A DNA stretch of 64,000 nt from NCBI GenBank assembly GCA_023382175.1, contig JAMCQB010000049.1, positions 2,888 through 66,887 of the forward strand, given 5' to 3'. Positions within the stretch are counted from its first letter, which is position 1. Each line of letters opens with the position of its first letter. Under the pieces are notes generated by a model. The model made no database searches, had not been told where the DNA came from, and was given only the letters and a program-made list of their open reading frames with translations. This document shows, one piece after another, positions 15,297 to 29,923 of the stretch. Origin of the DNA: Nitrospirota bacterium. GTDB lineage: Bacteria; Nitrospirota; Thermodesulfovibrionia; Thermodesulfovibrionales; UBA9159. The position numbers and the translations under genes are program-made.

Positions 15297-15461
15297 ATGT
15301 GTCCAAGTTTTAATAGGCCGATTTGTGAAGTGGCGGGTATCGAACCGGAAAGAATACACTGCACCGATAAAAACGCCTGCATGGGAGAATGGGAAAAGTG
15401 CCCGGTCTTCATAGCCCAATTTTTTGTGGAGGCAGGCATAGCATTTGACAGAGTTGCATAG
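15297..15461 (+). CDS. small cysteine protein, paralog C2 (54 aa, below the ORF-track cutoff)
   Basis: Hand translation gives MCPSFNRPICEVAGIEPERIHCTDKNACMGEWEKCPVFIAQFFVEAGIAFDRVA. A GGAGGTGAGCGAA RBS precedes it. The C-terminal C-x6-CPVF matches the family. Confidence 0.55.
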   Translation: MCPSFNRPICEVAGIEPERIHCTDKNACMGEWEKCPVFIAQFFVEAGIAFDRVA

Positions 15462-15500: not shown

Positions 15501-15535
15501 AAGAGACCCGGGAAGATTTTCGGGTCTCTTTATTA
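15501..15535 (+). terminator. intrinsic terminator
   Basis: AGAGACCCG / CGGGTCTCT stem followed by TTATT. Confidence 0.55.
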
Positions 15536-15551
15536 CAATTCTGTTACAAAA

Positions 15552-15596
15552 AATTAACCTGGCTGTAATAATCCTGTAACAAAATAGTTGTATCCT
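15552..15596 (+). promoter_or_regulatory. Pho-box-like promoter
   Basis: AATTAAC ctgg CTGTAAT aatc CTGTAAC, then 10 bp, then TATCCT (15591-15596). The geometry and -10 hexamer are the same as at pstS. Confidence 0.6.
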
Positions 15597-15616
15597 TGAT
15601 ACTAAGGAGGATAAGA

Positions 15617-15832
15617 ATGCATCTAAAAAGTGGAGCGATCTGTCAATTTCTGAAAGGGGGTTCTGACGGAGCTCAGTGCAGCGTGGTCGGCAGGTTCATC
15701 AGGCTCATGGAAGACGCCGACATCCGGCTCTGTATGGGCAGACACCATGAGGCATGCTCATACTATGTGCTCTCATTACGGGGACTGGCTCTTAGGGCTG
15801 CGGATCCTGATACTGCATTAGGCACGCGGTAG
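15617..15832 (+). CDS. small four-cysteine protein, paralog D
   Basis: ATG 15617 follows AAGGAGG. The Cys pattern is C-x11-C-x17-C-x7-C (ICQF...AQCS...RLCMGRHHEACSYY). Confidence 0.5.
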   Translation: MHLKSGAICQFLKGGSDGAQCSVVGRFIRLMEDADIRLCMGRHHEACSYYVLSLRGLALRAADPDTALGTR

Positions 15833-15870
15833 AATGTTCCGTCTTTCCTATAAAAGGTGCCCCACCGTGT

Positions 15871-16197
15871 ATGCTTAACGAATTGACGACACAATCTGCA
15901 ACAGGAATTGAGGAGATGAGATGTCCCTCTTGCGATTCCGATGCTATCTATAAGTATGGAAGGGCATGGACAGGAAAACAGAGGTTTCTCTGCATGATGT
16001 GCGGGATGCAATTTACCGGCAATGCCGGGAAGGCAACGGTGAAAGGCAAACCGGCTTGTCCGGAATGCGGGAAGCCCATGAACCTCTATAAGATAGAGGG
16101 TATTGTTGTGCGGTTCAGATGTTCGGGCTATCCAAAATGTAGAACATTCAAAAAATATAGGATGAAGGAGGAGCCAGATGAGCCATTACATCCATAA
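15871..16197 (+). CDS. double zinc-ribbon protein (InsA-like CxxC ribbon plus topoisomerase-type C4 finger), putative DNA binding
   Basis: CPSCDS...GKQRFLCMMCGMQF resembles transposase/InsA-type ribbons. CPECGKPM...FRCSGYPKC resembles the Topo I C4 finger. ATG 15916 is an alternative start. Confidence 0.5.
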   Translation: MLNELTTQSATGIEEMRCPSCDSDAIYKYGRAWTGKQRFLCMMCGMQFTGNAGKATVKGKPACPECGKPMNLYKIEGIVVRFRCSGYPKCRTFKKYRMKEEPDEPLHP

Positions 16198-16549
16198 CGT
16201 CCCGGGAAGATTGAGAGTTAAAAGTCCGGCAGTTAAGAAGAACACGGATGCCGCGGTTGAAATCCGAAAGATTTTGAGCGCCATGAACGGTATTGCAACG
16301 GTCGACATTAACCTCATCACCGGCAGTGTTCTCATTAACTACAATCCGGCGACCGTACAATACAAAGACATTGTAGGCACGCTCCAAAGGAAGGGCTACT
16401 TTGATACGTCAAAGGCGATAACAAATGATCAATACATCCAGAGAGCCGCTTCGAAAGCAGGCAATATCGTCGGAAAGGCTATCTTCGGTACATTTGTGGA
16501 AAAGGCATTCGAAGGGTCGGCTTTGTCATTAATAACATTCTTGATCTAA
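16178..16549 (+). CDS. HMA2-type (cysteine-less heavy-metal-associated-like) domain protein with hydrophobic C-terminal tail
   Basis: H..PGRLRVK...N.ITGSVLINY is the motif shared by three other proteins in this window. It overlaps the upstream ORF. Confidence 0.6.
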   Translation: MSHYIHNVPGRLRVKSPAVKKNTDAAVEIRKILSAMNGIATVDINLITGSVLINYNPATVQYKDIVGTLQRKGYFDTSKAITNDQYIQRAASKAGNIVGKAIFGTFVEKAFEGSALSLITFLI

Positions 16550-16569
16550 TTCTAGATGTCTTCACTCGC

Positions 16570-16890
16570 TCACTTTTCTGCTTCAAGATTTTCTGCCTTG
16601 AGTTTTAGTTCGCTAATTTGACAAAGTATTTTTTCAGAAAACTCAGACTCGCCGAGATCTTTATACTCGGGCATTAATTTCCGCACATCCGGATAGTCTT
16701 TAAATAAAAGTTCCAACATGTTGGATTGTGACCTTGCCAGATCAATATAGGACTTCTTTAGCGCAATATATTTTCCTTTATACGTTGCTAAGTCATTCTG
16801 CGGTTTTTTTTGAAGAGCAATACTCACTATACTTACGATCACGATCAATAGAGCAAAGAATAAATGCGTCCAAACACTTTTGTTTATCAT
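16570..16890 (-). CDS. hypothetical N-terminally membrane-anchored coiled-coil protein
   Basis: One N-terminal TM segment followed by a charged helical region. No family was recognised. Confidence 0.4.
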   Translation of the reverse strand: MINKSVWTHLFFALLIVIVSIVSIALQKKPQNDLATYKGKYIALKKSYIDLARSQSNMLELLFKDYPDVRKLMPEYKDLGESEFSEKILCQISELKLKAENLEAEK

Positions 16891-17004
16891 GTTGCCCTTT
16901 CTTTATTGAAGGTCATATTATCCATGTTTTCAGAGAGTTCAAGCGATTCTTTCTTTTTCTTGTACAGCTCAAGGTATACATCAATCGATATGCCGTCTCG
17001 ATTG

Positions 17005-17721
17005 TCATTTTCCTTCACGAACTCTTTCTGCAAAATAGACGGGCAAACCGGATTCTCCAATGGCCGAAGCCACTCTTTCTAAGTCGTAGGGCGCCCTTAT
17101 AAAATCGGTTTTCACGCCTTCGGGCAGACATTCGACGAGGGTCAGGCATGCCCGTGTATCCCCATCCTTCGGCTTTCCGACGCTGCCGGCATTGATGAAT
17201 ACCTTGCCGTCCACATCCCTCCTGTATGGAATATGGGTATGCCCGTAAATCAAGATACCCGCCTTTGCCTTGTCCGCCATTTCGAGAAAAAATTTATCTT
17301 TCCGGTCCTGGTGCCAATAGAGGTTATTCTTCAGAGGCGTAGCATGGAATATCTTGACCGTTCTTCCATGACAGGAGAAAGCGATCTCGAACGGGAGGCT
17401 TCTCATATATTCCTTACTTTTCCCCGAGGCATGTTTTTTTGTCCACTCAAAGGCCAGCGCCGCCATCTCCTCCTGAAGGGGATTCTCATATCTGCACCCG
17501 CAATGCTCCTTATTATTGCCTACGGCTTCATCATAGTTGCCCTGTACTCCCTCGATTTTATGTTCCACAAGGAAATCGACTACCTCATTCACAAATGGCG
17601 CATAGCCTCCGACGTCGCCGAGGTGATACAGCTTATCCACTTTCTGCAAAACGGCTGTCTCACATACCGCCTTTAATGCCTCGATATTGCCGTGAATGTC
17701 TCCTAGTATTCCGAGTTTCAT
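17005..17721 (-). CDS. metallophosphoesterase (calcineurin-like, YfcE/MJ0936-like)
   Basis: GDIHGN, GDVGGY, GNYD and GHTH motifs. Confidence 0.85.
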   Translation of the reverse strand: MKLGILGDIHGNIEALKAVCETAVLQKVDKLYHLGDVGGYAPFVNEVVDFLVEHKIEGVQGNYDEAVGNNKEHCGCRYENPLQEEMAALAFEWTKKHASGKSKEYMRSLPFEIAFSCHGRTVKIFHATPLKNNLYWHQDRKDKFFLEMADKAKAGILIYGHTHIPYRRDVDGKVFINAGSVGKPKDGDTRACLTLVECLPEGVKTDFIRAPYDLERVASAIGESGLPVYFAERVREGK

Positions 17722-17790
17722 CCGCCGATCTCCTTATACCAACAAAGTAATTGCATCGCAGCTCGCGTTCTTTACTATGATTGCTCATCA

Positions 17791-18054
17791 TCAGGTGCGA
17801 GACTTGCCTCTTCTGACGCTCAACACGTATTCAACCTTTCTGCTTACCAATATAGGCAAGAAATCTTTGACCCTTGCATTTCTTTTGAAACCCTTCAGCA
17901 CTAACTCATAAAGCTTCCCCACTTCTTCGAGTGACGCGCCGATACGCCCTGCAACTGTCTGCATGGCGTTTAGATGGCGCAGTCTTTCGGGTTCATCTTC
18001 ATAAAGCGCATGAAGATGAACATTCTCATCCTGCGAGGTACCCTTTACAGCCAT
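17791..18054 (-). CDS. small hypothetical protein, possibly DUF3562-like
   Basis: 87 aa. The C-terminal LYE...ARVKDFLPILVSRKV pattern is reminiscent of DUF3562, recalled from memory only. Confidence 0.35.
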   Translation of the reverse strand: MAVKGTSQDENVHLHALYEDEPERLRHLNAMQTVAGRIGASLEEVGKLYELVLKGFKRNARVKDFLPILVSRKVEYVLSVRRGKSRT

Positions 18055-18115
18055 GGCAATTTCTTAAGAACGGTATTCATTAAGATCACGGTGACCAATT
18101 TCCATACTCGTGTCT

Positions 18116-19315
18116 TCAACCTTTCAACTCCCGTATTCTGTCTGTCAATTCCCAGGGCAGCCCTATATCCATTCTGCCCACATGTCCATATACTGCAAGC
18201 CTTCTGTAAAAACCGCCCTTAACAATGGAGGGCAGGTACCGCAGATTGAACTGTTTTATTATTCCCGCAAGTCGAAAGTCAAAATGCCTCTCAATGAGTT
18301 CTGCAATCTTCTCATCAGAGGTCTTCCCTGTGCCAAAGGTCTCTACCTGAACACTCACCGGCCTTGAAAGACCTATAGAATAGCTGAGATGTATCTCGCA
18401 TTCCTCTGCAAGCCCTGCTGCTACCACATTCTTTGCCGCATATCTGGCGGCATATGCGCCTATCCTGTCTATACGCATGGGGTCTTTTCCGCTCAGGGCA
18501 GAGCCGCTGTGCCGGGAATATTCTCCATAGGTGTCTATGGCATTCTTTCTCCCTGTTAAGCCTGAATGGACAGAAGGACCACCAACTATGAACGGCCCGT
18601 CGGGATTTATGAATATCCTCGTGTTTGTATCAGGTTTGATCTCCTCATCGGCGAATACAGGGTTTACAACAGCAGCCCTTATATCGTCATGCAGTTTCTT
18701 TAAATCAGGACCGCCTGATGCTAACGGTTTGTTCTGGCTCGCGATCACTGTAACACTGTGAATACTGTAAGGCCTGCCATCCCTGTATTCCACTCCTACC
18801 TGTGTTTTCCCGTCAGGTGCAAGATAGGGGAGTATCTTCTGGAGCCTGACAGAGGTCAGTTTTCTTGCAAGCCTGTGAGCGAGCCAGATGGGAAGGGGCA
18901 TAAAAGATGCGGTCTGGTTGCAGGCAAAGCCGAAGACAGTGACCTGATTCCTGACAGGGATATTATCCATCTCCTCCTCCGATAGCTCTCTCTCATCAAG
19001 GCAGCAATGCTCATCTGAAGGCAATTCCTTGAGGCTTGTTACAATGCTGCAGGTCTTGCCGTTAAAGGCATGCTGGTCATAGCCGATCTGGTTTATAACC
19101 TGTCTTGCTATATACGGGAAATCTACAATGGCATTGGATTCAAACCTTGCTGCTATAAAAACTATGGCTGTGGATACAGCACACTCAGCAATGACCCTTG
19201 AAAATGGGTCCTGCTGAAGGAAATGATCTACAAGGGCATCGCTTATCTGGTCACAGAGCTTGTCAGGGTGTCCTTCTGTTACAGATTCTGATATAAAAAT
19301 AAAGTCCTTTTTCAT
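18116..19315 (-). CDS. S-adenosylmethionine synthetase-like protein (divergent MetK paralog)
   Basis: The N-terminal SESVTEGHPDKLCDQISDA and GLTGRK..DTYG...SGKDP..DR.GAYAARY are clearly MetK-like. The GAGDQG signature region is replaced. Confidence 0.8.
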   Translation of the reverse strand: MKKDFIFISESVTEGHPDKLCDQISDALVDHFLQQDPFSRVIAECAVSTAIVFIAARFESNAIVDFPYIARQVINQIGYDQHAFNGKTCSIVTSLKELPSDEHCCLDERELSEEEMDNIPVRNQVTVFGFACNQTASFMPLPIWLAHRLARKLTSVRLQKILPYLAPDGKTQVGVEYRDGRPYSIHSVTVIASQNKPLASGGPDLKKLHDDIRAAVVNPVFADEEIKPDTNTRIFINPDGPFIVGGPSVHSGLTGRKNAIDTYGEYSRHSGSALSGKDPMRIDRIGAYAARYAAKNVVAAGLAEECEIHLSYSIGLSRPVSVQVETFGTGKTSDEKIAELIERHFDFRLAGIIKQFNLRYLPSIVKGGFYRRLAVYGHVGRMDIGLPWELTDRIRELKG

Positions 19316-19329
19316 TTAGCACCTCATTG

Positions 19330-19407
19330 CTTAAGGTTAAGGTTGAGGCTAAGGTTAAGAATTACAAATTTTTAATCTCTCTTAACCTAAACCTTAACCT
19401 CAACCTG
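19330..19407. repeat. hexamer-based palindrome (TTRAGG)n / (CCTYAA)n between the ATPase stop and the metK-like start
   Basis: ttaagg ttaagg ttgagg ctaagg ttaaga, then a loop, then tcttaacc taaacc ttaacc tcaacc. The right arm includes the ATPase stop codon. Confidence 0.6.
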
Positions 19408-22400
19408 TTCTTTTTGTGCCTTCATTCACTAACAATGGCATCACCGCACTGCCTCCAATCACAATACCATCGAGGATACCTATGGGAGCCAATCCCAAAA
19501 GATTTCGGAGCCCTGGTAGCGCCATGGCAAGAAGCTGTACGGCAAAGGAACCTCCGAGGGCGATATTGAGATATTTATTGGGCAGTAGTTTTTCCTTATC
19601 AAATATAGAATGCTTCTCGGAGCGGCAACTTATGGCGTGGAGAAGCTGACCTGCGGTAAGGCTCATAAAAGCCATGGCGCTTGCCTTCTGTCCCATACCG
19701 TATCTCATCACGCCATATCCATAGGCCCCCAGGGTCCCCGCGGAAATCACTGCGGATTCAAATGTGATTCTTTTGAAATCCGACGTCTTGACGATCAGTT
19801 CTTCAGGATCCCGTGGAGGCTGGCTCAGCACATCAGGTTCAGGGGGTTCGAGGGCAAGGGCAAGACCCGGCGCTATATCGGACATAAGGTTGATCCACAG
19901 CAGCTGTATCGCACTGAGAGGTTGACCGAGCCCCCCTGCAATAGCAGTGAACATAACCATGATCTCGCTCAGATTTGTCGACAGCAGGAAATGGACGGAT
20001 TTCCTGATGTTGTTATAGATGGTCCTTCCCTGGCTTATGGCGATGATCATCGTTGCGAGTTCATCGTCTTCGATGACAACGTCTGCGACTTCCCGGGCAA
20101 CATCGGTGCCCACATGTCCCATTGCGATGCCTATATCCGCTGCTTTGAGGGCAGGGCCGTCATTAATACCATCTCCCGTCATGGCCACAATCTTTCCCGC
20201 ACCCTGGAGCGCCTGAACTATCTGGAGCTTATGGGCAGGACTCACGCGCGAAAAAACATGCACCCTCTCGCAGAGCGCCTTCATCACTTCAGGGTCGATA
20301 CTGGCAAGGTGAGCGGAATCAAGGATCTCGAGTTGTTCGCCATTGCTGAGGTTCAATTCCTTTCCTATGGCATAGGCGGTCGGGCTCTGGTCGCCGGTTA
20401 TCATGACCGTCTCAATCCCTGCCCTGTGAAATTCCCCTATCAACCCCTTCACGCCTCCTCTGACCGGATCAGCCATTCCTACAAGACCCAGCCACACAAG
20501 ATTATCGCTGAAATCGACATCATTATTAAGAAACGCGCCCGGTTCACCATCACTGAGAGAGTACGCCACCCCAAGGACACGGAGAGCCTCCCCGGCCATA
20601 CGCTCATTTTCCGTCTCTATGGCGAGCCGGTCCTCATCGGTCAAGGGAATCTTCCTGCCATCCTTCATATGCCACCTGCACATCGACAGGACCTCGTTCG
20701 GGCTCCCCTTTACGGCAACAAGCGCGGAATGGTTGCCTGCGCGGTGAAGTGTATACATGTAGTTGCGGTTTTCAGAACGATGTTGAATGTTCACCAGGAG
20801 AAATTTTTCCCTGAGTCTTACCACATCGACCCCCGAACTCAATGCTATGTGGATCAGCGCATTCTCCGTAGGAGAACCGTTGACCGCATATTCACCATGC
20901 TGTCCGATCACTTCACTTTCATTGCAGAGAGCCGCTATGTGAATGAGTCTCAGGAGTTCATCGAAGAGATATACACTCGCCGGTTCACCGGACGCAAAAA
21001 ACTGCCCGTCGGATACAGTGAAGCGCCTCATCCCACTAAATGCCGTGACAACAGACATCCTGTTCAGGGTGATCGTTCCTGTTTTGTCGAGGCATATGGT
21101 GTGGATAGAGCCGAGGGTTTCGACCGCTTCGAGTCGCCGTATGAGGACGTTGTGCCTCCGCATATTTCTGATGCCCAGGGCTAAGGTTGTGGTCGCCACT
21201 GTCGGAAGTCCTTCGGGGACGGCGGCGATGGCAAGGGATATGGAGGTTTTGAGCATCTGTAAAAAACCGTATCCACGAAGAAGTCCCGTAACAAAGACCA
21301 GGCCGCAGACAGCGCCGCAGATCAATACCAGTTGGCTGCCCATCATGTCCAGTTGGCGCTCCATAGGGGTTTCAGGAGGTCTTGCTTCACCGACGAGGAT
21401 TTGTATCCTTCCGATCTCGGTAAACCTCCCTGTCGCAACGGCAACAGCAATCCCCTGTCCTCCGACAACAAGTGTCCCCATGTATACCATGTTCGTCCTG
21501 TCAGCGAGGGGGATGTTGTCCCTCTCACCCTCTCCCGCCAGGGGAGAGGGTTTATAAATTTGTTTCCCTCCCCCTTGATGGGGGAGGGTGAGGGAGGGGG
21601 TGGCTGTTGTTTTAACCACAGGCATACTCTCGCCGGTGAGTGCTGACTCATCGATGCTCAGGTGATTGGCTTCAATGAGCCTTGCGTCTGCCGCAACATA
21701 GCTGCCGGGCCTGAGCAGAAGGAGGTCTCCGGGCACTACGTTTTCTGCGCCTATCTCTTTCAGACGACCATCCCGCAGCACTATAGCAGAGGGTCTCACA
21801 AGATTCTTCAGCGAATGGATCGTTTTTTCGGTCTGGCTCTCGGTTGTGTAACCGATGGCGGCATTGATGAGGACTACGCCCATGATCACCACCGCATCTG
21901 CAAGACCGCCGGTGAGGAGCGAAATGCCCGCAGCAGCTCCCAGGAGGGCGACAGGAAGGGATTTGAACTGGTTGATGAACATACTCAGCCCTGAACGCGG
22001 AACAGATTCAGGAAGGACATTCGGACCGTATTTTTTGAGATGTGCCCCGGCGAGGTCGCCGGATAAGCCCGAATCTTTCGACGTGCCGAGAGATTGGAGA
22101 ACCTCGGTCGCCTCAGCAAGATGCCACGGCTCGACTCTCTGGTCCTCGGACCGGATAATGCTTTTCCTTAATTTTCTCCTGCTTCTGAGCTCTCCGCGTT
22201 CCGGGGTCAGGACTTCGCCTGGCCTTGCTTTTTCCGGAAGCGGGTTGTGGACCTTTGCATGTCGAACTTCTTTCCCGGAGCCTGCTGCCACCCCTGGAAC
22301 GGGTAATGAAAAACAAGATGACTGCCTTCCGGCATTTTTTTTGTGAGCTTCGACAACGTCCGCAATGAGCAGGGCTATTGAATGGTGGGGGTTGTCTGAA

Positions 22401-22570
22401 TTAAAGAAAACAAGCACACTCCCGGTCAAAGAGTTTACCGAGAATTTCAGTATCTCTTTATGAGACGACAGACCCCCCTCTATCTCTCTCTTGAGCCTCT
22501 CAGAGCGGTATAGCCCATCTACCTTAAATCGCGCCCTGCCTTTTACAGCAGCATGTATGGGCCGAACCAC
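19400..22570 (-). CDS. P2-type cation-translocating P-type ATPase with N-terminal HMA2-type domain
   Basis: TGES, PEGLP, DKTGTIT, MITGDQ and GDGINDGPALK motifs. The TM5/TM6 motifs STNLSEI and INLMSD resemble SERCA-like Ca-site residues. The N-terminal KGRARFKV...N.LTGSVLVFF is an HMA2-type domain. Confidence 0.9.
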   Translation of the reverse strand: MVRPIHAAVKGRARFKVDGLYRSERLKREIEGGLSSHKEILKFSVNSLTGSVLVFFNSDNPHHSIALLIADVVEAHKKNAGRQSSCFSLPVPGVAAGSGKEVRHAKVHNPLPEKARPGEVLTPERGELRSRRKLRKSIIRSEDQRVEPWHLAEATEVLQSLGTSKDSGLSGDLAGAHLKKYGPNVLPESVPRSGLSMFINQFKSLPVALLGAAAGISLLTGGLADAVVIMGVVLINAAIGYTTESQTEKTIHSLKNLVRPSAIVLRDGRLKEIGAENVVPGDLLLLRPGSYVAADARLIEANHLSIDESALTGESMPVVKTTATPSLTLPHQGGGKQIYKPSPLAGEGERDNIPLADRTNMVYMGTLVVGGQGIAVAVATGRFTEIGRIQILVGEARPPETPMERQLDMMGSQLVLICGAVCGLVFVTGLLRGYGFLQMLKTSISLAIAAVPEGLPTVATTTLALGIRNMRRHNVLIRRLEAVETLGSIHTICLDKTGTITLNRMSVVTAFSGMRRFTVSDGQFFASGEPASVYLFDELLRLIHIAALCNESEVIGQHGEYAVNGSPTENALIHIALSSGVDVVRLREKFLLVNIQHRSENRNYMYTLHRAGNHSALVAVKGSPNEVLSMCRWHMKDGRKIPLTDEDRLAIETENERMAGEALRVLGVAYSLSDGEPGAFLNNDVDFSDNLVWLGLVGMADPVRGGVKGLIGEFHRAGIETVMITGDQSPTAYAIGKELNLSNGEQLEILDSAHLASIDPEVMKALCERVHVFSRVSPAHKLQIVQALQGAGKIVAMTGDGINDGPALKAADIGIAMGHVGTDVAREVADVVIEDDELATMIIAISQGRTIYNNIRKSVHFLLSTNLSEIMVMFTAIAGGLGQPLSAIQLLWINLMSDIAPGLALALEPPEPDVLSQPPRDPEELIVKTSDFKRITFESAVISAGTLGAYGYGVMRYGMGQKASAMAFMSLTAGQLLHAISCRSEKHSIFDKEKLLPNKYLNIALGGSFAVQLLAMALPGLRNLLGLAPIGILDGIVIGGSAVMPLLVNEGTKRTG
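21519..21600. repeat. double-hairpin GC-rich palindromic element inserted in frame in the ATPase gene
   Basis: CCCTCTCCC-gccag-GGGAGAGGG (21528-21550) and CCCTCCCCC-ttgat-GGGGGAGGG (21566-21588). It is translated as ...LTLPHQGGGKQIYKPSPLAGEGERD... Confidence 0.65.
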
Positions 22571-22585
22571 ACCTTTTATCCCTTT

Positions 22586-23266
22586 TTACCCTTCGTTCTC
22601 GGGGTTTTTTTCTGATACGCCTGCTTTCGGAGCCGTTGCTTCTTTTCGAGCGCCTGTAACGGCTGGTCTCGGTTTCGGCAGGGCGGCGCCTGCAACCTCC
22701 TTCACTCCTTCAACAACCCCAACAAGCATATCCTTGACAGCCTTTACCGCGGTATTCCCTATAGTTCCGGCAGCCTCGATCGCCCCTCCCACAGCCACCT
22801 TTGCCACATCTTCCACATTCCCGCCGACTTCCTTGGTTGCTTCGATGACCCCGTCAACCGCCCTCCGCGCAACCATGGCAACATCAGCGCCTACCTCAGC
22901 AGCACCTTTGACTGCGCCCTTTACCGTCTGGCTGGCAACGGTCACGACATCTCCGCCGACATCGCTCACTCCCATGACGACACCCTTCGCAACGCTCTTT
23001 GTGCTTAAAATGAGGCCTGTGCCGACCTCTTCCGTCGCCTGAATCGCACCCTTTACCACGTCTCTTGTAATGGTAACTGCTTCATTGGCCACTGAACCAG
23101 TGGCTCTCAGAGTGTTGGAAACGGTATTCCTCACCAGGCTGACGATTTCAGCCTCGATCTCGTTGATGCCCTTGAGGCTGCTCACGACACCTTCTTTTAC
23201 TGCTGTTCCTGCCTTGCCGATTCCTTCGCCCATCGGGCTTTCCTCTATGACATGCTCATTAGACAT
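22586..23266 (-). CDS. tandem 22-residue repeat protein (about 7-8 repeats), unknown function
   Basis: The start is set at ATG 23266, behind GAGGAGG. The repeats are TRDVVKGAIQATEEVGTGLILS / TKSVAKGVVMGVSDVGGDVVTV / ASQTVKGAVKGAAEVGADVAMV / ARRAVDGVIEATKEVGGNVEDV / AKVAVGGAIEAAGTIGNTAVKA, and so on. Confidence 0.6.
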   Translation of the reverse strand: MSNEHVIEESPMGEGIGKAGTAVKEGVVSSLKGINEIEAEIVSLVRNTVSNTLRATGSVANEAVTITRDVVKGAIQATEEVGTGLILSTKSVAKGVVMGVSDVGGDVVTVASQTVKGAVKGAAEVGADVAMVARRAVDGVIEATKEVGGNVEDVAKVAVGGAIEAAGTIGNTAVKAVKDMLVGVVEGVKEVAGAALPKPRPAVTGARKEATAPKAGVSEKNPENEG

Positions 23267-23310
23267 GGGTAACCTCCTCTTTTTCACAAACGTGGGTAGC
23301 TGTTTATCAT

Positions 23311-23333
23311 AAAAACGGAAGGGAAATCCCTTC
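23311..23333 (-). terminator. possible weak terminator/attenuator between the HMA2-TM gene and the repeat-protein gene
   Basis: On the minus strand, GAAGGG-atTT-CCCTTC followed by CGTTTTTAT. Confidence 0.35.
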
Positions 23334-23346
23334 TTCCTCCAGACCG

Positions 23347-23829
23347 TTATGCTGCGACCCCGGCGCCTTGCCCTGACTTGAGGAATATGTTAAATGCGTA
23401 CCAGAAGGCGGCATACCATGGGAGCGCAGTAAGATTTCCTACGCTCATTTGGTATATTCCGGCGCCGAGGAGCAGGAGAAAAGCCAGCCCTCCGATGTCT
23501 ATCTCGCCCCCGGTAAGCGCCACAAGCTGAGTATTCATCCCTTTAAAGGTTTCCGATACCCGCTGCTGCAACCTTCTCGGAGAGGCGTTCAGTCCTTGAA
23601 GGCTGAAAAGATTACCGGCCATGGCGTATCCCGCAATTCTTTCACTATCCAGATCGTGCATCACGAGCAAACTGCCGGTTAAGGCATTGACTTCAACGGT
23701 CTTGATGCCTTCAAAACCGGAAAATCGTTCCTTCAAGCCTCCAAAAAATGCACGATCACCCTTTTTTGAAGGTATCCTGATCCTCAACCTTCCTCTGGTC
23801 CGATGGCTTATATAAGCGCGCGGGAGCAT
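23347..23829 (-). CDS. HMA2-type domain protein with C-terminal transmembrane segments
   Basis: The N-terminal H.TRGRLRIRIP...N.LTGSLLVMH motif and the C-terminal GGLAFLLLLGAGIY...ALPWYAAFWYAFNIFL. Its start overlaps the upstream stop (TAATG). Confidence 0.6.
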   Translation of the reverse strand: MLPRAYISHRTRGRLRIRIPSKKGDRAFFGGLKERFSGFEGIKTVEVNALTGSLLVMHDLDSERIAGYAMAGNLFSLQGLNASPRRLQQRVSETFKGMNTQLVALTGGEIDIGGLAFLLLLGAGIYQMSVGNLTALPWYAAFWYAFNIFLKSGQGAGVAA

Positions 23830-24119
23830 TAAGCGTTTGGTTCGCCTTCCGGCGCAACCGGGGCAGATGCGGCTTTTTCCGCCTCCGAGATCTCAGCTTT
23901 TACCTCGGCTACCAGGTCCTCAACCACCTCACCTACTTCAGCAAAAGTCTCCTTGCCTTTTTCAAAGAGGATAAGTCCTCCCTTTATCGCTGCCTTTGCC
24001 ACCGGTTTTGCCACACCTGCAATAACGGGGAGCACGGCAGGAGCAAGGACAGCCGCCCCTATGCCAATAGCAAGCCCTGTCACAACATTTCCCTTCAGGA
24101 CATCATCAAAAAGTCCCAT
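23829..24119 (-). CDS. DUF5132-like small membrane protein
   Basis: MGLFDDVLKGNVVTGLAIGIGAAVLAPAVLPVIAGVAKPVAKAAIKGGLILFEKG followed by an acidic tail. This matches my recollection of DUF5132 proteins, which are often adjacent to HMA2/P-type ATPase genes. Confidence 0.55.
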   Translation of the reverse strand: MGLFDDVLKGNVVTGLAIGIGAAVLAPAVLPVIAGVAKPVAKAAIKGGLILFEKGKETFAEVGEVVEDLVAEVKAEISEAEKAASAPVAPEGEPNA

Positions 24120-24211
24120 TCCGAGCCTCCTTTCTTTTGTATATCTTTACCATATCACTTTCATCATTTAGCGTCCATGAGTTCTTTCATTACTTGCCTA
24201 CAAGAAGACAA

Positions 24212-24267
24212 ATTTCATTGAAATTTAACGGTAGCTTCATAAGGACGTAACAGTACTGTGGTTTACT
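24212..24267 (+). promoter_or_regulatory. Pho-box-like promoter (four phased boxes)
   Basis: ATTTCAT tgaa ATTTAAC ggta GCTTCAT aagg ACGTAAC, then 10 bp, then TTTACT (24262-24267). Confidence 0.55.
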
Positions 24268-24300
24268 ATGCCCAGGATCAGACGAAAGAGGATGACTGCT

Positions 24301-24564
24301 ATGATGCAGTACAAGATTTTACATCATGTCCCAGGCCGTATCAGGATTGAGGTGCCCTCCATTAAGGGACGTTCCCTGAAGGCTCTAAAGCGATTATCAG
24401 ATATTCCCGTTCCGTGCGGTATAGAGGACATTCGCCCTAATCCCTTGACAGGAAGCCTCTTGATAAAGTATGACCCAGGCCGGATAAATATCGTTTCCTA
24501 TCTGAGGGACATGGCATCCAGGGACGTGATAAACAATGTACTCGACAAAGGAGGTTTGTTATGA
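24301..24564 (+). CDS. stand-alone HMA2-type domain protein
   Basis: HHVPGRIRIEVP...NPLTGSLLIKYDP. The start was moved to ATG 24301 because ATG 24268 abuts the predicted -10. The RBS is AAGAGGA. Confidence 0.6.
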   Translation: MMQYKILHHVPGRIRIEVPSIKGRSLKALKRLSDIPVPCGIEDIRPNPLTGSLLIKYDPGRINIVSYLRDMASRDVINNVLDKGGLL

Positions 24565-24770
24565 ACAGCACCCATAACATTGCATCTATGATACACCTCA
24601 CCAATGAATTGGAATTGCAGTGCCCCTACTTTGATGCATCCGACGTCTGCAATGCCTCGCTCTCCTCATTATTGCCATCGCCGACTATGAGGGTGAATTT
24701 CTGTAACAGCGAAGACTATGACAATTGCCCCATATTCCTGGCTAAGGTCTTAAGAAGGAGGCGGAAATGA
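24561..24770 (+). CDS. small four-cysteine protein, paralog E
   Basis: ATGA start/stop overlap with the upstream gene and an AAGGAGG RBS. The Cys pattern is C-x8-C-x17-C-x7-CPIF. Confidence 0.55.
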   Translation: MNSTHNIASMIHLTNELELQCPYFDASDVCNASLSSLLPSPTMRVNFCNSEDYDNCPIFLAKVLRRRRK

Positions 24771-24958
24771 CATGTCTCGACTATGTGTCCGAAGATTTGA
24801 GATGTCTCAGGGGTATCCCCGTTACTCCAAGGTTCAGCAGCTTCTTCTGTAAAGGAAAACATGAGAAATGTCCTTTGATCATATGGGAGAAATCTCAGAC
24901 AAAGAACCCGGAGATGTTACGGCCGAAATCATTTATCAATATATGGAGGGAACCATGA
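24767..24958 (+). CDS. small four-cysteine protein, paralog F
   Basis: ATGA overlap and an AAGGAGG RBS. The Cys pattern is C-x9-C-x14-C-x6-CPLI. Confidence 0.5.
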   Translation: MTCLDYVSEDLRCLRGIPVTPRFSSFFCKGKHEKCPLIIWEKSQTKNPEMLRPKSFINIWREP

Positions 24959-25134
24959 AATGTCCGCATCTGGCAAAATGGGTCGTGTCTGTCTGTAAGG
25001 CTGTGAGTAATACTTATGTCCCCAGTAACTTTGAGCTTCAAGAGTACTGTAAGACAAAAAGCCATAAGAAATGCCCTTTCTTTTTAAAGAATACAGCCGT
25101 GAAAAGAGAAGCGGATGGCCTGATCTCAGCATAG
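24955..25134 (+). CDS. small four-cysteine protein, paralog G
   Basis: ATGA overlap with F and a GGAGGG RBS. MKCPHLAKWVVSVCKAV...YCKTKSHKKCPFFL gives the pattern C-x10-C-x17-C-x7-CPFF. Confidence 0.55.
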   Translation: MKCPHLAKWVVSVCKAVSNTYVPSNFELQEYCKTKSHKKCPFFLKNTAVKREADGLISA

Positions 25135-25213: not shown

Positions 25214-25218
25214 ATTTC

Positions 25219-25410: not shown

Positions 25411-25466
25411 ATGTAACAGAAAATTAATCTTCTTGTAACATAATTGTAACAATCAAAATGTATCCT
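25411..25466 (+). promoter_or_regulatory. Pho-box promoter of pstS (four phased boxes)
   Basis: ATGTAAC agaa AATTAAT cttc TTGTAAC ataa TTGTAAC, then 10 bp, then TATCCT (25461-25466). Confidence 0.7.
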
Positions 25467-25487: not shown

Positions 25488-26498
25488 ATGAAAAATGTAA
25501 TAAGTTTAGTTCTCGCAATCGCCGTTATTCTCTCGTTCACGGTGGCAGGAGCAGAAGAAACATTGAACGGCGCAGGTGCAACATTCCCCTATCCTGTTTA
25601 TTCTGCATGGGCATATGACTATCATAAGACAACAGGTGTAAAACTTAATTACCAGTCAATAGGCTCAGGGGGAGGCATCAGACAGATCGTAAACAGAACA
25701 GTGGATTTTGGAGGCTCCGACAATGTTCTTACCCCGCAGGACCTCAATAAAGACAATCTGCTTCAATTCCCGGCAGTAATGGGCGGTGTTGTCCCTGTGG
25801 TCAATATACCAGGCGTTAAGGAGGGCGAGCTAAGGCTTGATTCCGAGGCTGTATGCAAAATATTCCTCGGAGATATCAAACAGTGGAATGACAAGAAAAT
25901 AAAAGACTTAAATCCGAAAATAAATCTCCCTGATAAAGAGATAACCGTTGTGCACAGGTCAGACGGCTCAGGAACAACAGCCATCTATACCCATTATCTC
26001 AGCGGCGCATGCGCTGCATGGAAAGATAAGGTCGGCTATGGAACATCAGTCAAGTGGCCGGTTGGCATAGGCGGCAAAGGGAATGAAGGTGTTGCCAACT
26101 ATGTTAAGCGGACACCGAATTCCATCGGATATGTGGAATTCGCCTATGCAAAGCAGAATAAGCTTGCACACACACTCCTGAAGAATCCGGCAGGAAACTT
26201 TGTTGAACCGTCCTTTGATACCTTTGAAGATGCTGCTGCCACAGCGGATTTTGATGCCAAAAACCATTTTGCCACATGGCTTACCAACGCACCGGGCAAG
26301 AATTCATGGCCTATAGCTGGCGCTACCTTTATACTCCTCGCAAAGGAAAAAAAGGACTCTAATGTAAAGACCGTAAAATTCTTTGACTGGGCGTTCAAAA
26401 ATGGTGATGCAAAGGCAAAGGAACTCATCTATATCCCGATGCCAAAGTCTCTAAAGGATAAAATCAGGGCATACTGGAAGGCAAACGGAATATATTAG
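25488..26498 (+). CDS. pstS: phosphate ABC transporter substrate-binding protein
   Basis: Signal peptide, GAGATFPYPVY, SIGSGGG and RSDGSGTT motifs. Confidence 0.95.
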   Translation: MKNVISLVLAIAVILSFTVAGAEETLNGAGATFPYPVYSAWAYDYHKTTGVKLNYQSIGSGGGIRQIVNRTVDFGGSDNVLTPQDLNKDNLLQFPAVMGGVVPVVNIPGVKEGELRLDSEAVCKIFLGDIKQWNDKKIKDLNPKINLPDKEITVVHRSDGSGTTAIYTHYLSGACAAWKDKVGYGTSVKWPVGIGGKGNEGVANYVKRTPNSIGYVEFAYAKQNKLAHTLLKNPAGNFVEPSFDTFEDAAATADFDAKNHFATWLTNAPGKNSWPIAGATFILLAKEKKDSNVKTVKFFDWAFKNGDAKAKELIYIPMPKSLKDKIRAYWKANGIY

Positions 26499-26520
26499 GT
26501 ACCACAGGCTAAAGGCGAAT

Positions 26521-26570
26521 AGGCTGAAGGCAAAAGGTTAAAACTGCCTTATTCCTTCAGCCTTTTTTTT
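26521..26570 (+). terminator. intrinsic terminator after pstS
   Basis: AGGCTGAAGG ... CCTTCAGCCT stem followed by T8. Confidence 0.7.
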
Positions 26571-26650
26571 GACCTTAAATTTAATCAAGAGAATTCAGGG
26601 AGGGGAGATATGAGATGCCTCGCGGCTCCGCTGCGGGGTAATTCATTAAA

Positions 26651-26679
26651 TTGCAATAGACAATTCCGATATGTATTAT
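26651..26679 (+). promoter_or_regulatory. possible sigma70-type internal promoter for pstCAB-phoU
   Basis: TTGCAA-N17-TATTAT. Confidence 0.35.
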
Positions 26680-26713
26680 ATATTGACCACTGACTGTAAG
26701 GAGCATTATCGCT

Positions 26714-27655
26714 GTGATTTTTTCAAAAAAGAAAAATCCTGTTGATTTAACTTTCTCATTTATTACCGGTATCGCATCCGTCTCTGTTATTTTAATTACC
26801 GCAGGCATTTTATATGTGCTTTTTAAGGAATCTTCCCTTTCTATAGAAAGGTTTGGTTTTTTTAAATTCCTTACACTGGTTGATTGGGATCCTGTGAAGG
26901 AATCTTTTGGAGCCGCCGCAGCCCTTTATGGAACATTAATCACCACAGTTTTGGCCCTTATTATTGCCATACCGGTTGCCGTTGGAATTGCCATATATGT
27001 TACAGAGGTCGCCCCCAATTTCCTGAAGGGTCCCGTCGGGATTGCCATAGAGCTTTTAGCGGCCATACCCAGCATCATTTACGGCATGTGGGGTCTCTTC
27101 ACCCTTTCCCCGATTATGGCCAAGTACATCGAACCCTTTTTGCAAAGGACTGTCGGGAAACTACCCCTCGTTGGAATTCTGTTTGAAGGCACTCCCCTGG
27201 GCATAGACTTCTTAACGGCGAGCATGATACTCGGCATAATGATAATTCCGTTTACAGCGAGCATATCGAGGGATGCCTTTAACCTTACGCCGGCAGTAGT
27301 CAAGGAGTCAGCCTATGCAGTGGGCGCTACAAAATGGGAAGTGGTAAAGGATATAGTGCTGCCCTATTCAAAACTGGGCGTCTTTGGAGGTGTTGCCATC
27401 TCCCTCGGAAGGGCGCTGGGTGAAACAATGGCCGTGGCCTTTGTCCTCGGAAACAACAACCAGATAACCACATCCCTCTTCGGCGCAGCAGCCACCGTTA
27501 CGGTAAAACTCGCAAACGAGTTTACAGAAGCGGACAAGGACATCTATCTTTCATCATTATATTATTTGGCGCTCTTGCTCTTTGTTATGAGCTTTATTGT
27601 CCTGGCTATCGCAAAGTTCCTTTTATTAAAGGCCGAAAGGAGATACAGCAGGTGA
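26714..27655 (+). CDS. pstC: phosphate ABC transporter permease PstC
   Basis: Polytopic permease with an EAA-like loop (ESAYAVGATKWEV). GTG start. Its position in the pst operon supports the call. Confidence 0.9.
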   Translation: MIFSKKKNPVDLTFSFITGIASVSVILITAGILYVLFKESSLSIERFGFFKFLTLVDWDPVKESFGAAAALYGTLITTVLALIIAIPVAVGIAIYVTEVAPNFLKGPVGIAIELLAAIPSIIYGMWGLFTLSPIMAKYIEPFLQRTVGKLPLVGILFEGTPLGIDFLTASMILGIMIIPFTASISRDAFNLTPAVVKESAYAVGATKWEVVKDIVLPYSKLGVFGGVAISLGRALGETMAVAFVLGNNNQITTSLFGAAATVTVKLANEFTEADKDIYLSSLYYLALLLFVMSFIVLAIAKFLLLKAERRYSR

Positions 27656-28494
27656 GGCGTGAAAGATTAAGGGTTATACAGAGCCATGCTGCTTTTGTCG
27701 TAAGCACCCTTACCGCCCTGTTCGGTATTTTCTGGCTCGTATTCATTATCGGTGACATCCTTATTCACGGCATAGGTGCGCTGAACATAGACCTGTTCAT
27801 AAAGGACCCGGCCCCGGCAGGTGTGGAGGGAGGCGGCTTGAGGAACGCATTTGTAGGGCATCTGATGATAACCCTGTTTGCAACATTGATAGGCGTCCCT
27901 GTGGGCGTGCTCGGCGGCACATTCCTCGCAGAATACGCAAGGGGCAAAAAAATCGCCCGTTTTATAAGCATCCTCTCGGACATAATGGTAAGTGTTCCAG
28001 CCATTGTGGTCGGCACGTTCGTATATGCCATAATCGTAAAACCCCTCGGTCATTTCAGCGGCTGGGCAGGGGCGGTTGCCCTGGCAATAATAATGATCCC
28101 CGTTGTCCTGAGGACAACAGAGGACATGCTTTCCCTTGTATCATGGACGGTCAGAGAAGCTGCCTTTGCCCTCGGCGCTCCCTATTATAAAGTCATTCTA
28201 CAGGTGGTTTACAGGGGAGCGGCCACCGGCATCTTAACGGGGATCCTCCTTTCCATTGCAAGGGTTACAGGGGAAGCAGCGCCCCTTTTATTTACATCAT
28301 TTAACAACTCCTTCTTCTCCACAAACATGAATGAACCGATAGCTTCCCTTACGGTATCCATATTCCAGTATGCCATGGGGCCTTATGACAGCTGGCATGC
28401 GCAGGCATGGGCTGCAGCGCTGATGATTACGGTATTCATTCTCATTATTACAGTACTCGGAAGGCTCATCATAAAATGGAGGTACAAGAAGTGA
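27652..28494 (+). CDS. pstA: phosphate ABC transporter permease PstA
   Basis: Permease with [10 protein letters not shown] motif. Its start overlaps the pstC stop. Confidence 0.9.
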
Positions 28495-29255
28495 CAGGAC
28501 AAATAGAGCTCGAGGCCAAAAATCTTAACTTTTATTACTCAGGCAACATACATGCCCTGAAGCAGGTAAGCTTCTTCGCCTATAAGCACAATGTTACGGC
28601 GTTGATAGGACCCTCCGGCTGCGGCAAAACCACGCTCCTCAGGTGTTTCAACAGAATGCATGACCTGTATCCTAAAAATAGGTACGAAGGCGAGATAGTC
28701 TTTCAGGGTAAAAATATTCTTTCTAAGGACGTAGATGTCATTAACCTCAGGAGCCGTATCGGCATGGTATTTCAGAAACCGACCCCATTCCCCATGACCA
28801 TATTCGACAATGTCGCATACGGTCTGAAGTTAAAGGGAATCAACAAAAGGACAGAACTCTCGGAAAGGGTTGAAAAGGCCCTTAAAAATTCAGCCATCTG
28901 GGATGAGGTTAAAGATAAGCTCAATGTCAGCGCTTACGAGCTTTCCGGAGGACAGCAGCAGAGGCTCGTTATCGCAAGGGCATTGGCCGTCGAGCCGGAG
29001 GTCTTGCTTTTTGACGAGCCCACATCCGCTCTCGACCCCATATCCACAAGCAAGATAGAGGAGCTTCTTGTCCAGTTAAAAAGCAAGATCACCATAATTA
29101 TCGTTACCCACAATATGCAGCAGGCAGCGAGGATCTCTGACTTTACCGGGTTTGTAATGCTCGGGGAGTTGATTGAGTTCGATAAAACTGATAAAATGTT
29201 CACCGCTCCCTCTGAAAAACTCACAGAGGAATATATAACAGGGAGGTTCGGCTGA
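28476..29255 (+). CDS. pstB: phosphate ABC transporter ATP-binding protein PstB
   Basis: Walker [10 protein letters not shown], signature LSGGQQQR and Walker [12 protein letters not shown]. The start is ATG 28476 or GTG 28491 (GTGA overlap with the pstA stop). Confidence 0.95.
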
Positions 29256-29923
29256 TGACTGTCTTTGATGAAGAGTTGCAGCATTTAAAAGAAAAGCTTC
29301 TCAAGATGGGATCCCTGGTGGAAGATGCGATTAAGAATTCCATACATGCCCTTGTGGACAGGGACAATGCCCTTGCAGCAAAGGTCATTGAAAATGACCG
29401 GATAATAAACACGTTCGATGTTGAGATTGATGAAGAATCCATCCGGCTCATCGCATTGAAACAGCCGAGGGCAGGTGATCTGCGATTGATAACAACTGCG
29501 ATGAAGATAACCACTGACCTCGAAAGGATGGGAGATATGGCTGTCAATATAGCCGAAAGGGCGTTGGAGCTGAATGAAGAGCCTATTCTCAAGCCATATA
29601 TTGACATACCGAAGATGAGCCAAATTGCACAAGGCATGACGAGGGATGCCCTCGACGCCTTTGTGAGAAAAGACAAAAAGCTCGCAACAGACGTGATTAT
29701 GAGAGATGATGAAGTTGATGACCTCAAGCATGACGTATTGCAGGAACTTGCCTTTTTTATGGCCCAGGATCCCACAACAGTTTTCCGTGCCATGAAGATA
29801 AGCTTTGTGGCAACGTATCTCGAACGCATTGCAGACCATGCTACCAATATCGCTGAGATGGTGATCTATCTGGTTGAAGGAAAAATAATCAGACATATGC
29901 TGCCTCCGGCTGAAGACAAATAA
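29255..29923 (+). CDS. phoU: phosphate signalling complex protein PhoU
   Basis: Duplicated PhoU repeats with E..D..ID and DLERIGD-like motifs (DLERMGDMAVNIAE, YLERIADHATNIAE). Confidence 0.9.
   Translation: MTVFDEELQHLKEKLLKMGSLVEDAIKNSIHALVDRDNALAAKVIENDRIINTFDVEIDEESIRLIALKQPRAGDLRLITTAMKITTDLERMGDMAVNIAERALELNEEPILKPYIDIPKMSQIAQGMTRDALDAFVRKDKKLATDVIMRDDEVDDLKHDVLQELAFFMAQDPTTVFRAMKISFVATYLERIADHATNIAEMVIYLVEGKIIRHMLPPAEDK

Follow-up and report, generated by a model that had tools for sequence, protein, structure and literature searches.

A conserved five-gene operon with a CoBaHMA-fused P2A ATPase in Nitrospirota and its possible part in a calcium-phosphate store under phosphate starvation

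The gene cluster described here lies in a Nitrospirota metagenome-assembled genome (GCA_023382175.1, contig JAMCQB010000049.1), from which a stretch of 64 kb, referred to as the window, was analysed. The cluster occupies positions 15552-25134 of the window and has at its centre five genes on the minus strand. In order of transcription these encode a DUF5132 protein (23829..24119; DUF5132, 52.8 bits), a protein with a CoBaHMA domain, an amphipathic helix and a two-helix hydrophobic hairpin (CoBaHMA-TM, 23347..23829; HMA_2, 57.8 bits), a protein made up of eight repeats of 22 residues, in which V, A, G, E and K abound, and ending in a basic tail rich in K, R and P (REP, 22586..23266), a Ca-type P2A ATPase of 1056 amino acids with an N-terminal CoBaHMA domain (the pump, 19400..22570), and a paralog of MetK with the three MetK Pfam domains (18116..19315). 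All open reading frames (ORFs) that an initial annotation of this DNA had listed were present where it had placed them, and the overlaps it had reported, of 1 nt (TAATG) and 4 nt (ATGA), follow from the ORF coordinates. The cluster as first noticed is real, and well beyond what chance would produce.

The neighbourhoods of pump and CoBaHMA-TM homologues were compared before an alignment of REP was scanned against 185,579 species genomes. A REP relative is encoded by 267 of these genomes, and the best 80 loci from them formed the locus set, in which core gene order was counted over the 57 loci with sufficient flank and accessory genes over the 40 loci with wide flanks. The order DUF5132, CoBaHMA-TM, REP, pump, MetK paralog was intact in 48 of the 57 loci; several of the failures were overlap or ORF-calling artefacts, or concerned REP paralogs. 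The DUF5132 gene lay upstream of the CoBaHMA-TM gene in 64 of 72 loci, and the MetK paralog, already listed in the gene string by the initial annotation, is a core member that adjoined the ATPase gene in 55 of 62. The best 80 loci came mostly from Nitrospirota (Thermodesulfovibrionales, Dissulfurispiraceae, Ca. Sulfobium and Ca. Manganitrophus), the other carriers being Desulfobacterota, Planctomycetota, Binatia, Acidobacteriota and Syntrophorhabdaceae. Across these phyla the core operon is kept amid unrelated gene neighbourhoods. An accessory operon, encoding 4-Cys miniproteins, a double zinc-ribbon protein (ZnR) and a soluble CoBaHMA protein, accompanies the core in about 80% of the loci.

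From these counts and those of the accessory genes, the real unit is therefore the five-gene core operon plus a frequent operon of Cys miniproteins, ZnR and CoBaHMA. The initial annotation had drawn a longer string, extending to a metallophosphoesterase (17005..17721, minus strand; Metallophos_2, 87 bits), an occasional accessory found in 3 of the 40 loci with wide flanks, and to an ORF with a transmembrane (TM) segment and a coiled coil (16570..16890, minus strand; no Pfam match), found in 0 of the 40. Both are lineage-specific passengers. That the system is conserved and undescribed was borne out: besides the conservation in several phyla, no published description of the cluster was found in literature searches, whose coverage did not extend to the main CoBaHMA paper (Gaschignard 2024). 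Some genomes carry three to four REP genes (MFD01716.bin.1.191 with loci L035, L040, L043 and L067; SMAG_U15329 with L031, L045 and L069), and some have two full clusters. An extra P-type ATPase of 879-905 amino acids follows the MetK paralog in L033, L043 and L066.

The domain that recurs through the cluster was detected with HMA_2 (PF19991; Pfam cut-off 30 bits). Besides CoBaHMA-TM, two soluble proteins encoded on the plus strand scored above this value: HMA2a (16178..16549; 48.7 bits; 34 of the 40 loci with wide flanks), which has a hydrophobic C-terminal tail, and the stand-alone HMA2b (24268..24564; 33.4 bits; 21 of 40), which is divergent from the core operon. The N-terminus of the pump reached 29.5 bits, 0.5 under the cut-off, and of the 120 closest pump homologues nearly all have this domain among their precomputed assignments. 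Of the four Cys-less HMA-like copies that had been reported in the initial annotation, three therefore pass the Pfam threshold and the pump copy does not, while the motif H-x3-GR-x-R...TGS[VL]L is common to all four and CxxC occurs in none. The R-rich motif reads GRARF in the pump, GRLRIRI in CoBaHMA-TM, where the R-rich strand is HRTRGRLRIRIP, and GRLRV and GRIRI in the solo copies.

An AlphaFold2 (AF2) model of CoBaHMA-TM, built from 43 sequences, had a predicted local distance difference test score (pLDDT) of 78.6 overall. The order b0-b1-a1-b2-b3-a2-b4 was modelled at a pLDDT above 90, with the extra strand b0 at residues 4-11, and was followed by helices at residues 84-106, 112-130 and 135-154, the last two forming the hairpin. 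Foldseek matches of this model were HMA domains. With an HMA fold plus b0, a conserved His, basic residues and no CxxC, the HMA_2 domains of the cluster are CoBaHMA domains. The initial annotation had not recognised them as the CoBaHMA of calcyanin loci, nor had it seen the parallel with the fez loci that is drawn below. CoBaHMA was first defined at the N-terminus of calcyanin, the cyanobacterial marker of intracellular amorphous calcium carbonate (iACC) (PMC8890360), and binding of anionic lipids by this domain is a proposal attributed to Gaschignard 2024.

The DUF5132 protein consists of an N-terminal hydrophobic segment with Pro and G15-x3-G19, followed by a helix with an acidic tail. A tblastn search with it against plasmids gave no match, and NCBIfam offered no named model, for ferrosomes or otherwise, that matches DUF5132, CoBaHMA-TM, REP or any Cys protein. 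In locus L003 (16050-18793) a second DUF5132 gene is divergent from a 742-aa P1B-type ATPase, whose N-terminus is a CoBaHMA/R-rich domain (HSIPGRIRVRVS) and whose TM4 contains a CPC motif; the pairing of DUF5132 with a CoBaHMA pump therefore extends beyond P2A pumps. This ATPase was considered as a FezB and rejected, since it has CPC instead of D[YF]SCA and is not P1B-6.

The pump carries the Pfam domains Cation_ATPase_N, E1-E2, Hydrolase and Cation_ATPase_C and is 100% identical to a database entry annotated 'cation-transporting P-type ATPase'. Its best PDB matches were SPCA1 (1e-140), LMCA1 (5e-138) and SERCA (1e-116), and against NCBIfam it scored 607.7 with TIGR01522 (PMR1-type; cut-off 798.3) and 521.2 with TIGR01116 (SERCA-type; cut-off 703.4). 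By these matches and scores it is a Ca-type P2A ATPase, in agreement with its first description as a SERCA-like P2 ATPase, and it lies below every NCBIfam Ca-ATPase equivalog cut-off. The family assignments first made for the cluster thus stand above threshold for HMA_2 (three copies) and DUF5132 but not, at the level of Ca subfamilies, for the ATPase. DKTGT, PEGL (TM4) and the ion-site residues N/E of TM5 and N/D of TM6 are all present, and the position of SERCA E908 is Q. Among the 120 closest homologues, AAVPEGLP and LWINL[IMV]SD (TM6 N..SD) were each found in 118, as was GRxR[FY] at the N-terminus, and the TM5 N..E motif (STNLSE-type) was matched by a regular expression in at least 75. Judged by its sequence, the pump represents a P2A subfamily of its own, for which the CoBaHMA domain at the N-terminus is the hallmark.

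The MetK paralog scored 381.9 bits with TIGR01034 (cut-off 309.4). The window copy was compared with four other operon copies and two PDB MetKs, using E. coli numbering. In all five operon copies GGE is replaced by AAR (E55R) and GGPxGD by GGPSVH (D238H); K269R is found in the operon copies as well, Q98 is variable (L/S/M), GAGDQG has become P-[VA]-x-[ND]-Q-[VA], GGGAF has become SG[SA]AL, and there is a 7-residue insert. The canonical methionine-site residues are kept in both PDB MetKs. GHPDK, K165, R244-K245, K265 and D271 are kept in the paralog. We take the replaced residues to be those that hold methionine in MetK/MAT2A, and the retained ones to be those that hold triphosphate and Mg. Because of this division the paralog would still bind ATP or triphosphate (PPPi), and would not bind methionine. 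It probably has a new function and is probably mis-annotated, systematically, as methionine adenosyltransferase, a label that is then probably wrong for several hundred genes.

The 22-residue repeat of REP, as first described, is real. BLOSUM autocorrelation peaked at lag 22 (1.26) and lag 44 (1.11), and a search for tandem repeats at the DNA level found none in REP, the repetition being at the protein level only. Over five orthologues the hydrophobic moment was 0.38 at exactly 98.2 degrees (11/3 periodicity) versus about 0.04 at 100 degrees. The AF2 model (pLDDT 78) has seven helices of 17-45 residues, five of them of 17-22, with short turns between. In a fold search of the PDB only de novo designed helical repeats matched, and no natural relative. 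Pfam, searched at E values up to 10, gave no family and no Gly-zipper match for REP; hits to Senescence (15.6 bits, E = 0.016) and Phasin_2 (12.8 bits, E = 0.14) were sub-threshold and were treated as chance.

The REP family comprises 893 clusters at 50% identity. K/R/P-rich tails are common among the homologues, a few are fused to gene neighbours, and some have a C-terminal MucR/Ros zinc finger, a receiver domain or an N-terminal DUF2934 (P0241, P0246, P0322 and P0353). A stand-alone DUF2934 gene is present in the Pho island of the window (L001 16063-16221). Between the CoBaHMA-TM gene and REP a consensus scan found a terminator-like hairpin with a T-run (23318..23333, minus strand). It is possibly an attenuator, which could set differing expression levels within the operon.

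The accessory operon runs on the plus strand from CysD (15617..15832; 16 of the 40 loci with wide flanks), a 4-Cys miniprotein of the pattern CP-x-L-x-G...C...C-x2-R-x2-E-x-C, through ZnR (15871..16197; 32 of 40) to HMA2a, the start of which overlaps the end of ZnR by 20 nt. ZnR matched Zn_ribbon_InsA (33 bits) and Zn_ribbon_IS1595 (31.5 bits) in Pfam, and its first ribbon is of the IS1/IS1595 DNA-binding type (NCBIfam NF050000, 45.1 bits, cut-off 28). On the other side of the core, HMA2b is followed on the plus strand by three more 4-Cys miniproteins: CysE (24561..24770; CPY...C-x-AS...C-x2-E-x-YD-x-CPIFL; 18 of 40), CysF (24767..24958; 4 of 40), which is the least conserved and is uncalled in the source contig, and CysG (24955..25134; KCP-x-L...C-x-A...PY-x-PS-x-F-x-L-x-EYC...H-x-KCPF; 17 of 40), the probable start of which is M30 of an 88-aa ORF, via the ATGA overlap. 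A further small protein with five cysteines, Cys54 (15297..15461, plus strand), is called in the source contig just outside the range of the initial annotation; it is paralogous to the other miniproteins, and its family (MCP-x4-G-x-C...C...C...W-x2-C) occurs in 16 loci. The Cys miniproteins thus constitute five real, conserved and paralogous families with the common pattern CP-x-[LF] ... C ... C-x6-8-CP, and none of them matched Pfam. A DUF3562 small protein (17791..18054, minus strand; DUF3562, 30.1 bits) is another frequent accessory, found in 22 of the 40 loci.

Upstream of Cys54, at 13603-15178 (plus strand), a histidine kinase with a weak CBS-like N-terminus is encoded together with a stand-alone receiver without output domain, and similar pairs occur in about 12 of 40 related loci. 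Downstream of CysG, one good TGTAACA half-site with a poorly spaced second half is found at 25190-25215, and the interval between CysG and pstS (25207-25452) contains a short ORF, either the minus-strand one called in the source contig (81 aa) or a hydrophobic plus-strand one (44 aa).

Two Pho-box-like direct repeats of the type TGTAACA-N4-TGTAATA (15531..15581, sites at 15531 and 15564, one mismatch each) lie upstream of the CysD-ZnR-CoBaHMA operon, and a perfect repeat, TGTAACATAATTGTAACA, lies upstream of pstS (25434..25451, plus strand). The sequence TGTAACA-N4-TGTAACA repeats with a period of 11 bp and is similar to the Pho box of E. coli. The window contains five such sites versus 0.42 expected, and 84 related loci contain 182 versus 16 in shuffles; in these loci the sites are located before ZnR (35), pstS (33), CysD (27) and psiE (10) and in the divergent region between DUF5132 and HMA2b (14). 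Both plus-strand operons had been placed at Pho boxes in the initial annotation. This is correct for the operon from about 15617, and pstS has its own box at 25434, but no site with up to two mismatches was found before the operon at 24268, or in the core promoter of the window.

For the minus-strand string, the reported absence of a Pho box in the window was confirmed. Its regulation had been left open, yet a conserved 17-nt element lies beside a sigma-70-like core promoter (24149..24177, minus strand) with a -35 box TGGACG (24172-24177), a 17-nt spacer and a -10 box TATGGT (24149-24154). The promoter positions T[AG]GAC[AG]-N17-TAnnnT are conserved across loci and the spacer sequence varies. 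The 17-nt element TAGGCAAGTAATGAAAG (24184..24200, minus strand) is placed 6 nt upstream of the -35 box; this exact copy is the sole match in the window at up to three mismatches. It is found upstream of DUF5132 in 56 of 67 loci, across phyla, and also before REP paralogs (L040, L067 and L008) and before a CDF gene (L022). ZnR was present in 39 of 42 element-positive versus 4 of 9 element-negative loci (Fisher p = 0.002, phylogeny-uncorrected). The element is probably the operator of a cluster-encoded regulator, and a candidate activator site.

A riboswitch or leader was rejected as an explanation for the 17-mer, given the positionally conserved -35/-10 pair downstream of it, and a sigma-54 promoter, hinted at by the enriched k-mer TGGCAC, was rejected for the window copy, which has no GG-N10-GC. 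An Rfam scan of the 64-kb window found no RNA family within the cluster, its sole match being a tRNA gene at 50988-51060 (plus strand). From the Pho-box sites, the 17-nt element and the co-occurrence of ZnR, a two-step cascade may be proposed, in which PhoB acts on the accessory operon and ZnR on the core operon. PhoB-type boxes would drive the accessory operon, and ZnR is the candidate activator at the 17-nt element beside the core promoter.

The whole window is a Pho island, in which PhoH, alkaline phosphatase and PsiE precede the cluster and the pstSCAB-phoU operon (25488..29923, plus strand) follows it. Genes of the island include a GT21 glycosyltransferase (2396-3610), PhoH-PIN (4002-5285), alkaline phosphatase (9909-11090), BacA (11733-12518) and PsiE (12638-13078). 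The link to phosphate starvation made in the initial annotation is strong, considering this island together with the sites before the accessory operon, pstS and psiE. In 10-14 related loci there are again genes for GT21, for a GH1 enzyme and for OlsB/OlsA-like acyltransferases, which points to remodelling towards phosphorus-free lipids within this regulon.

Genes of ion and polyphosphate metabolism extend the operon in some lineages. In about 10 loci the gene directly behind the MetK paralog is CorA, and in about 9 it is a CDF gene. In L082 (15051-18146, plus strand) PPX-PPK1 is directly downstream of the MetK paralog, and in L071 (5716-8870) PPK1 and PPX have as their neighbour a REP paralog with two PstS genes and ZnR genes on its flanks; PPK1/PPX were found beside the cluster in only 2-3 loci.

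A variant cluster is present in a cultured alphaproteobacterium, Microvirga sp. VF16 (L086; megaplasmid NZ_CP069355.1, 1178255-1196575), in a stretch that is unannotated in PLSDB. Its order is CYTH - DUF5132 (two copies) - CoBaHMA-P2A pump - CoBaHMA-TM - DUF445 - CoBaHMA-TM, with neither REP nor MetK. CYTH enzymes and MetK have only triphosphate chemistry in common, and the CYTH gene at the place of MetK is a hint that such chemistry may belong to the system.

Our preferred reading, to which we give somewhat less than an even chance, is that the products of the cluster assemble and fill a storage body for Ca/Mg-phosphate, associated with a membrane and controlled by phosphate starvation. The sequences show gene content and conservation, domain assignments, residue substitutions, cis-elements and genomic associations; the rest of this reading, from the compartment and the transported ion with its direction to what REP, the MetK paralog, ZnR and the Cys proteins do, we infer as follows. 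The P2A pump would use ATP to transfer Ca2+ from the cytosol into the store, and in some lineages CorA or CDF proteins of the operon would transport other divalent ions. The DUF5132 protein and the hairpin protein CoBaHMA-TM would mark or shape the membrane, and the Cys-less, Arg-rich CoBaHMA domains would be regulatory or targeting modules, probably reading an anionic surface (lipid or polyphosphate). REP would coat the body, and a tether to DNA or polyphosphate could be provided by its basic tail or, in some homologues, by the MucR zinc finger. The MetK paralog would supply or process phosphate-chain species. Of the two hypotheses put forward in the initial annotation, a membrane-bounded store with a coat protein fits the anatomy of the cluster and the closest known systems better than the buffering or export of cations.

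Several points weigh against a storage body. The store is postulated here from genes; sequence fixes neither the membrane of the pump nor the direction of transport, and bacterial P2A pumps of the LMCA1 kind export across the plasma membrane. No transporter for phosphate or carbonate is encoded in the core, nor V-PPase, VTC or calcyanin. AF2 folds REP as a compact solenoid and not as an extended membrane-lying helix. Only 15 of the 40 loci with wide flanks adjoin pst genes, a Pho-box-like site in the region of the core promoter is found in only the 14 loci mentioned above and not in the window, and the statistic that associates ZnR with the operator ignores phylogeny. The substitution of CYTH for MetK was seen at a single locus, and for FezA and FezC the parallel was drawn from published descriptions.

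The main rival is a regulated plasma-membrane exporter of Ca2+ (or Mn2+) without any organelle, which would keep cytosolic Ca2+ low while phosphate starvation frees polyphosphate-bound cations and phospholipids are replaced. The CoBaHMA copies would then sense anionic lipid and gate the pump, and DUF5132 and REP would be membrane-stress or stabilising proteins. This was the first hypothesis of the initial annotation. It agrees with the export activity of LMCA1, the closest solved bacterial relative, and with the genes for phosphorus-free lipid remodelling (GT21, OlsB/OlsA-like) in the same islands, as well as with the anionic-lipid binding proposed for CoBaHMA in literature citing Gaschignard 2024. 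However, it leaves unexplained why four to five partner genes keep a fixed order across phyla, why REP occurs with DNA-binding fusions, why the MetK paralog has lost its methionine site and why CorA, CDF and PPK1-PPX extend the operon; moreover, the DUF5132/CoBaHMA trio also flanks the biomineralisation marker ccyA. We consider an exporter possible, though on balance unlikely.

A calcyanin-independent iACC system of non-cyanobacteria, in which carbonate and not phosphate is stored, is improbable. The ccyA gene of Microcystis is surrounded by, and co-expressed with, DUF5132 and CoBaHMA genes and a Ca transporter, and iACC has been reported in some magnetotactic Nitrospirota (PMC12710302), in a study that makes no mention of the cluster. 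Here, however, genes for a carbonic anhydrase, a bicarbonate transporter or a GlyZip protein are absent from the cluster, no mam-like magnetosome genes were found among the window ORFs that were scanned, and every recurrent association is one with phosphate (Pst, PhoU, PsiE, PhoH, Pho boxes, PPK1 and PPX). A metabolic module built around the MetK paralog, devoted to adenosyl transfer or a SAM-related reaction for which the pump supplies Mg2+/K+ or clears an inhibitory cation, with the other genes as accessories, can be given very little credence. The paralog is as conserved in the operon as the pump and scores above the metK equivalog cut-off, but all copies have other residues in place of E55 and D238, the Microvirga variant has pump, DUF5132 and CoBaHMA-TM genes without MetK, and the ion-site residues of the pump are Ca-type.

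The Ca/Mg-phosphate storage body can also be put in a bolder form. The cluster would then specify a hitherto unrecognised bacterial organelle, a lipid-associated Ca/Mg-(poly)phosphate store and counterpart of the acidocalcisome, with a dedicated CoBaHMA-gated P2A pump, a coat formed by a new helical-repeat family, a triphosphate enzyme derived from MetK and a regulatory cascade of PhoB, zinc ribbon and 17-nt element. We regard this form as rather doubtful and offer it tentatively. If it is true, ferrosomes, iACC bodies and this store would define one shared 'CoBaHMA toolkit' for bacterial mineral-storage compartments.

It has long been an open question whether the polyphosphate/calcium granules of bacteria have a boundary and are specified by genes. 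To our knowledge, a defined gene set is available for one metal-phosphate store only, the ferrosome; the cluster would offer a second one, of a calcium type, in at least 267 REP-encoding species genomes. Its carriers among Nitrospirota and Desulfobacterota are abundant in sediments and groundwater, and a Ca-P store in such carriers, if real, would bear on phosphorus and alkaline-earth cycling.

Compared with the P2A Ca2+-ATPases SPCA1/PMR1, LMCA1 and SERCA, the pump has the same domain order and ion-site residues. It differs in an extra N-terminal CoBaHMA region of about 145 residues including the linker, in its constant place within the five-gene operon, in the Q at SERCA E908 and in its scores under all NCBIfam equivalog cut-offs. 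The MetK paralog likewise shares with MetK the fold, the three domains, the residues for ATP, triphosphate and Mg and the TIGR01034 score above cut-off, and differs by E55R, D238H, K269R, the Q98 changes, the losses in the loops and the operon bond to a Ca pump. REP may be likened, as we assume, to the polyhydroxyalkanoate (PHA) phasins PhaF/PhaM with their DNA-binding tails and to 11-mer amphipathic proteins (apolipoproteins, alpha-synuclein and perilipins), with which it shares a long amphipathic helical region of exact 11/3 periodicity and a basic K/P/R-rich tail or, in some homologues, a DNA-binding domain. Unlike these, it has no significant sequence or fold match, forms a compact solenoid in AF2 and has no PHA genes nearby. 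The eukaryote-type acidocalcisome differs in its V-H+-PPase, V-ATPase and VTC, none of which was found in the cluster or its recurrent neighbours.

Calcyanin is headed by CoBaHMA in many cyanobacteria (Benzerara 2022, PMC8890360), and in Microcystis ccyA is flanked by, and co-expressed with, two DUF5132 genes, a CoBaHMA-helical-hairpin gene, a solo CoBaHMA gene and a Ca2+/H+ exchanger (bioRxiv 10.1101/2024.07.07.602159). Both loci thus have DUF5132 and HMA_2 proteins, hairpin-fused and solo, beside a Ca2+ transporter. The transporter is a Ca2+/H+ exchanger there and a CoBaHMA-fused ATPase here; the ccyA locus has calcyanin with (GlyZip)3, whereas the cluster has no Gly-zipper match in Pfam; and the MetK paralog, REP and ZnR are absent there, while regulation here is Pho-linked.

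The fez clusters encode the P1B-6 ATPase FezB with an N-terminal RxRxR motif, together with FezA, FezC and FezD (Grant et al.; bioRxiv 10.1101/2020.01.10.902569). FezC has an N-terminal HMA domain and two TM segments with an R-rich motif, FezA is a hydrophobic GxxxG protein, a soluble chaperone-like protein is also described, and the product is a lipid-bounded iron-phosphate store (bioRxiv 10.1101/2020.01.10.902569). The likeness extends to several components. An RxR(xR)-type motif stands at the N-terminus of both pumps, here as GRARF and, in the homologues, as the widespread GRxR; CoBaHMA-TM resembles FezC in its HMA domain and two-helix hairpin, a likeness of architecture only, with FezC known from its description; G15-x3-G19 in the hydrophobic segment of DUF5132 may correspond to the GxxxG of FezA, compared by description only; the soluble chaperone-like HMA protein has its equivalent in two soluble CoBaHMA proteins; and both systems are compact operons found across many phyla. 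The differences are equally distinct. The pump here is P2A, with PEGL and a Ca-type site, whereas FezB is P1B-6 with D[YF]SCA and HNxxT motifs; the cluster is without FeoA, ferritin-like and DUF4405 genes; its neighbours are the Pho regulon (Pst, PhoU, PsiE and PhoH), CorA and CDF, and those of fez belong to iron homeostasis; and no Fez counterparts have been described for REP, the MetK paralog, ZnR or the 4-Cys miniproteins. Because it has neither a P1B-6 pump nor calcyanin, the cluster belongs to neither the fez nor the iACC systems, and only by analogy do we infer that it may work as they do. Through a shared domain toolkit it joins three literatures, those on CoBaHMA and iACC, on ferrosomes and on the Pho regulon.

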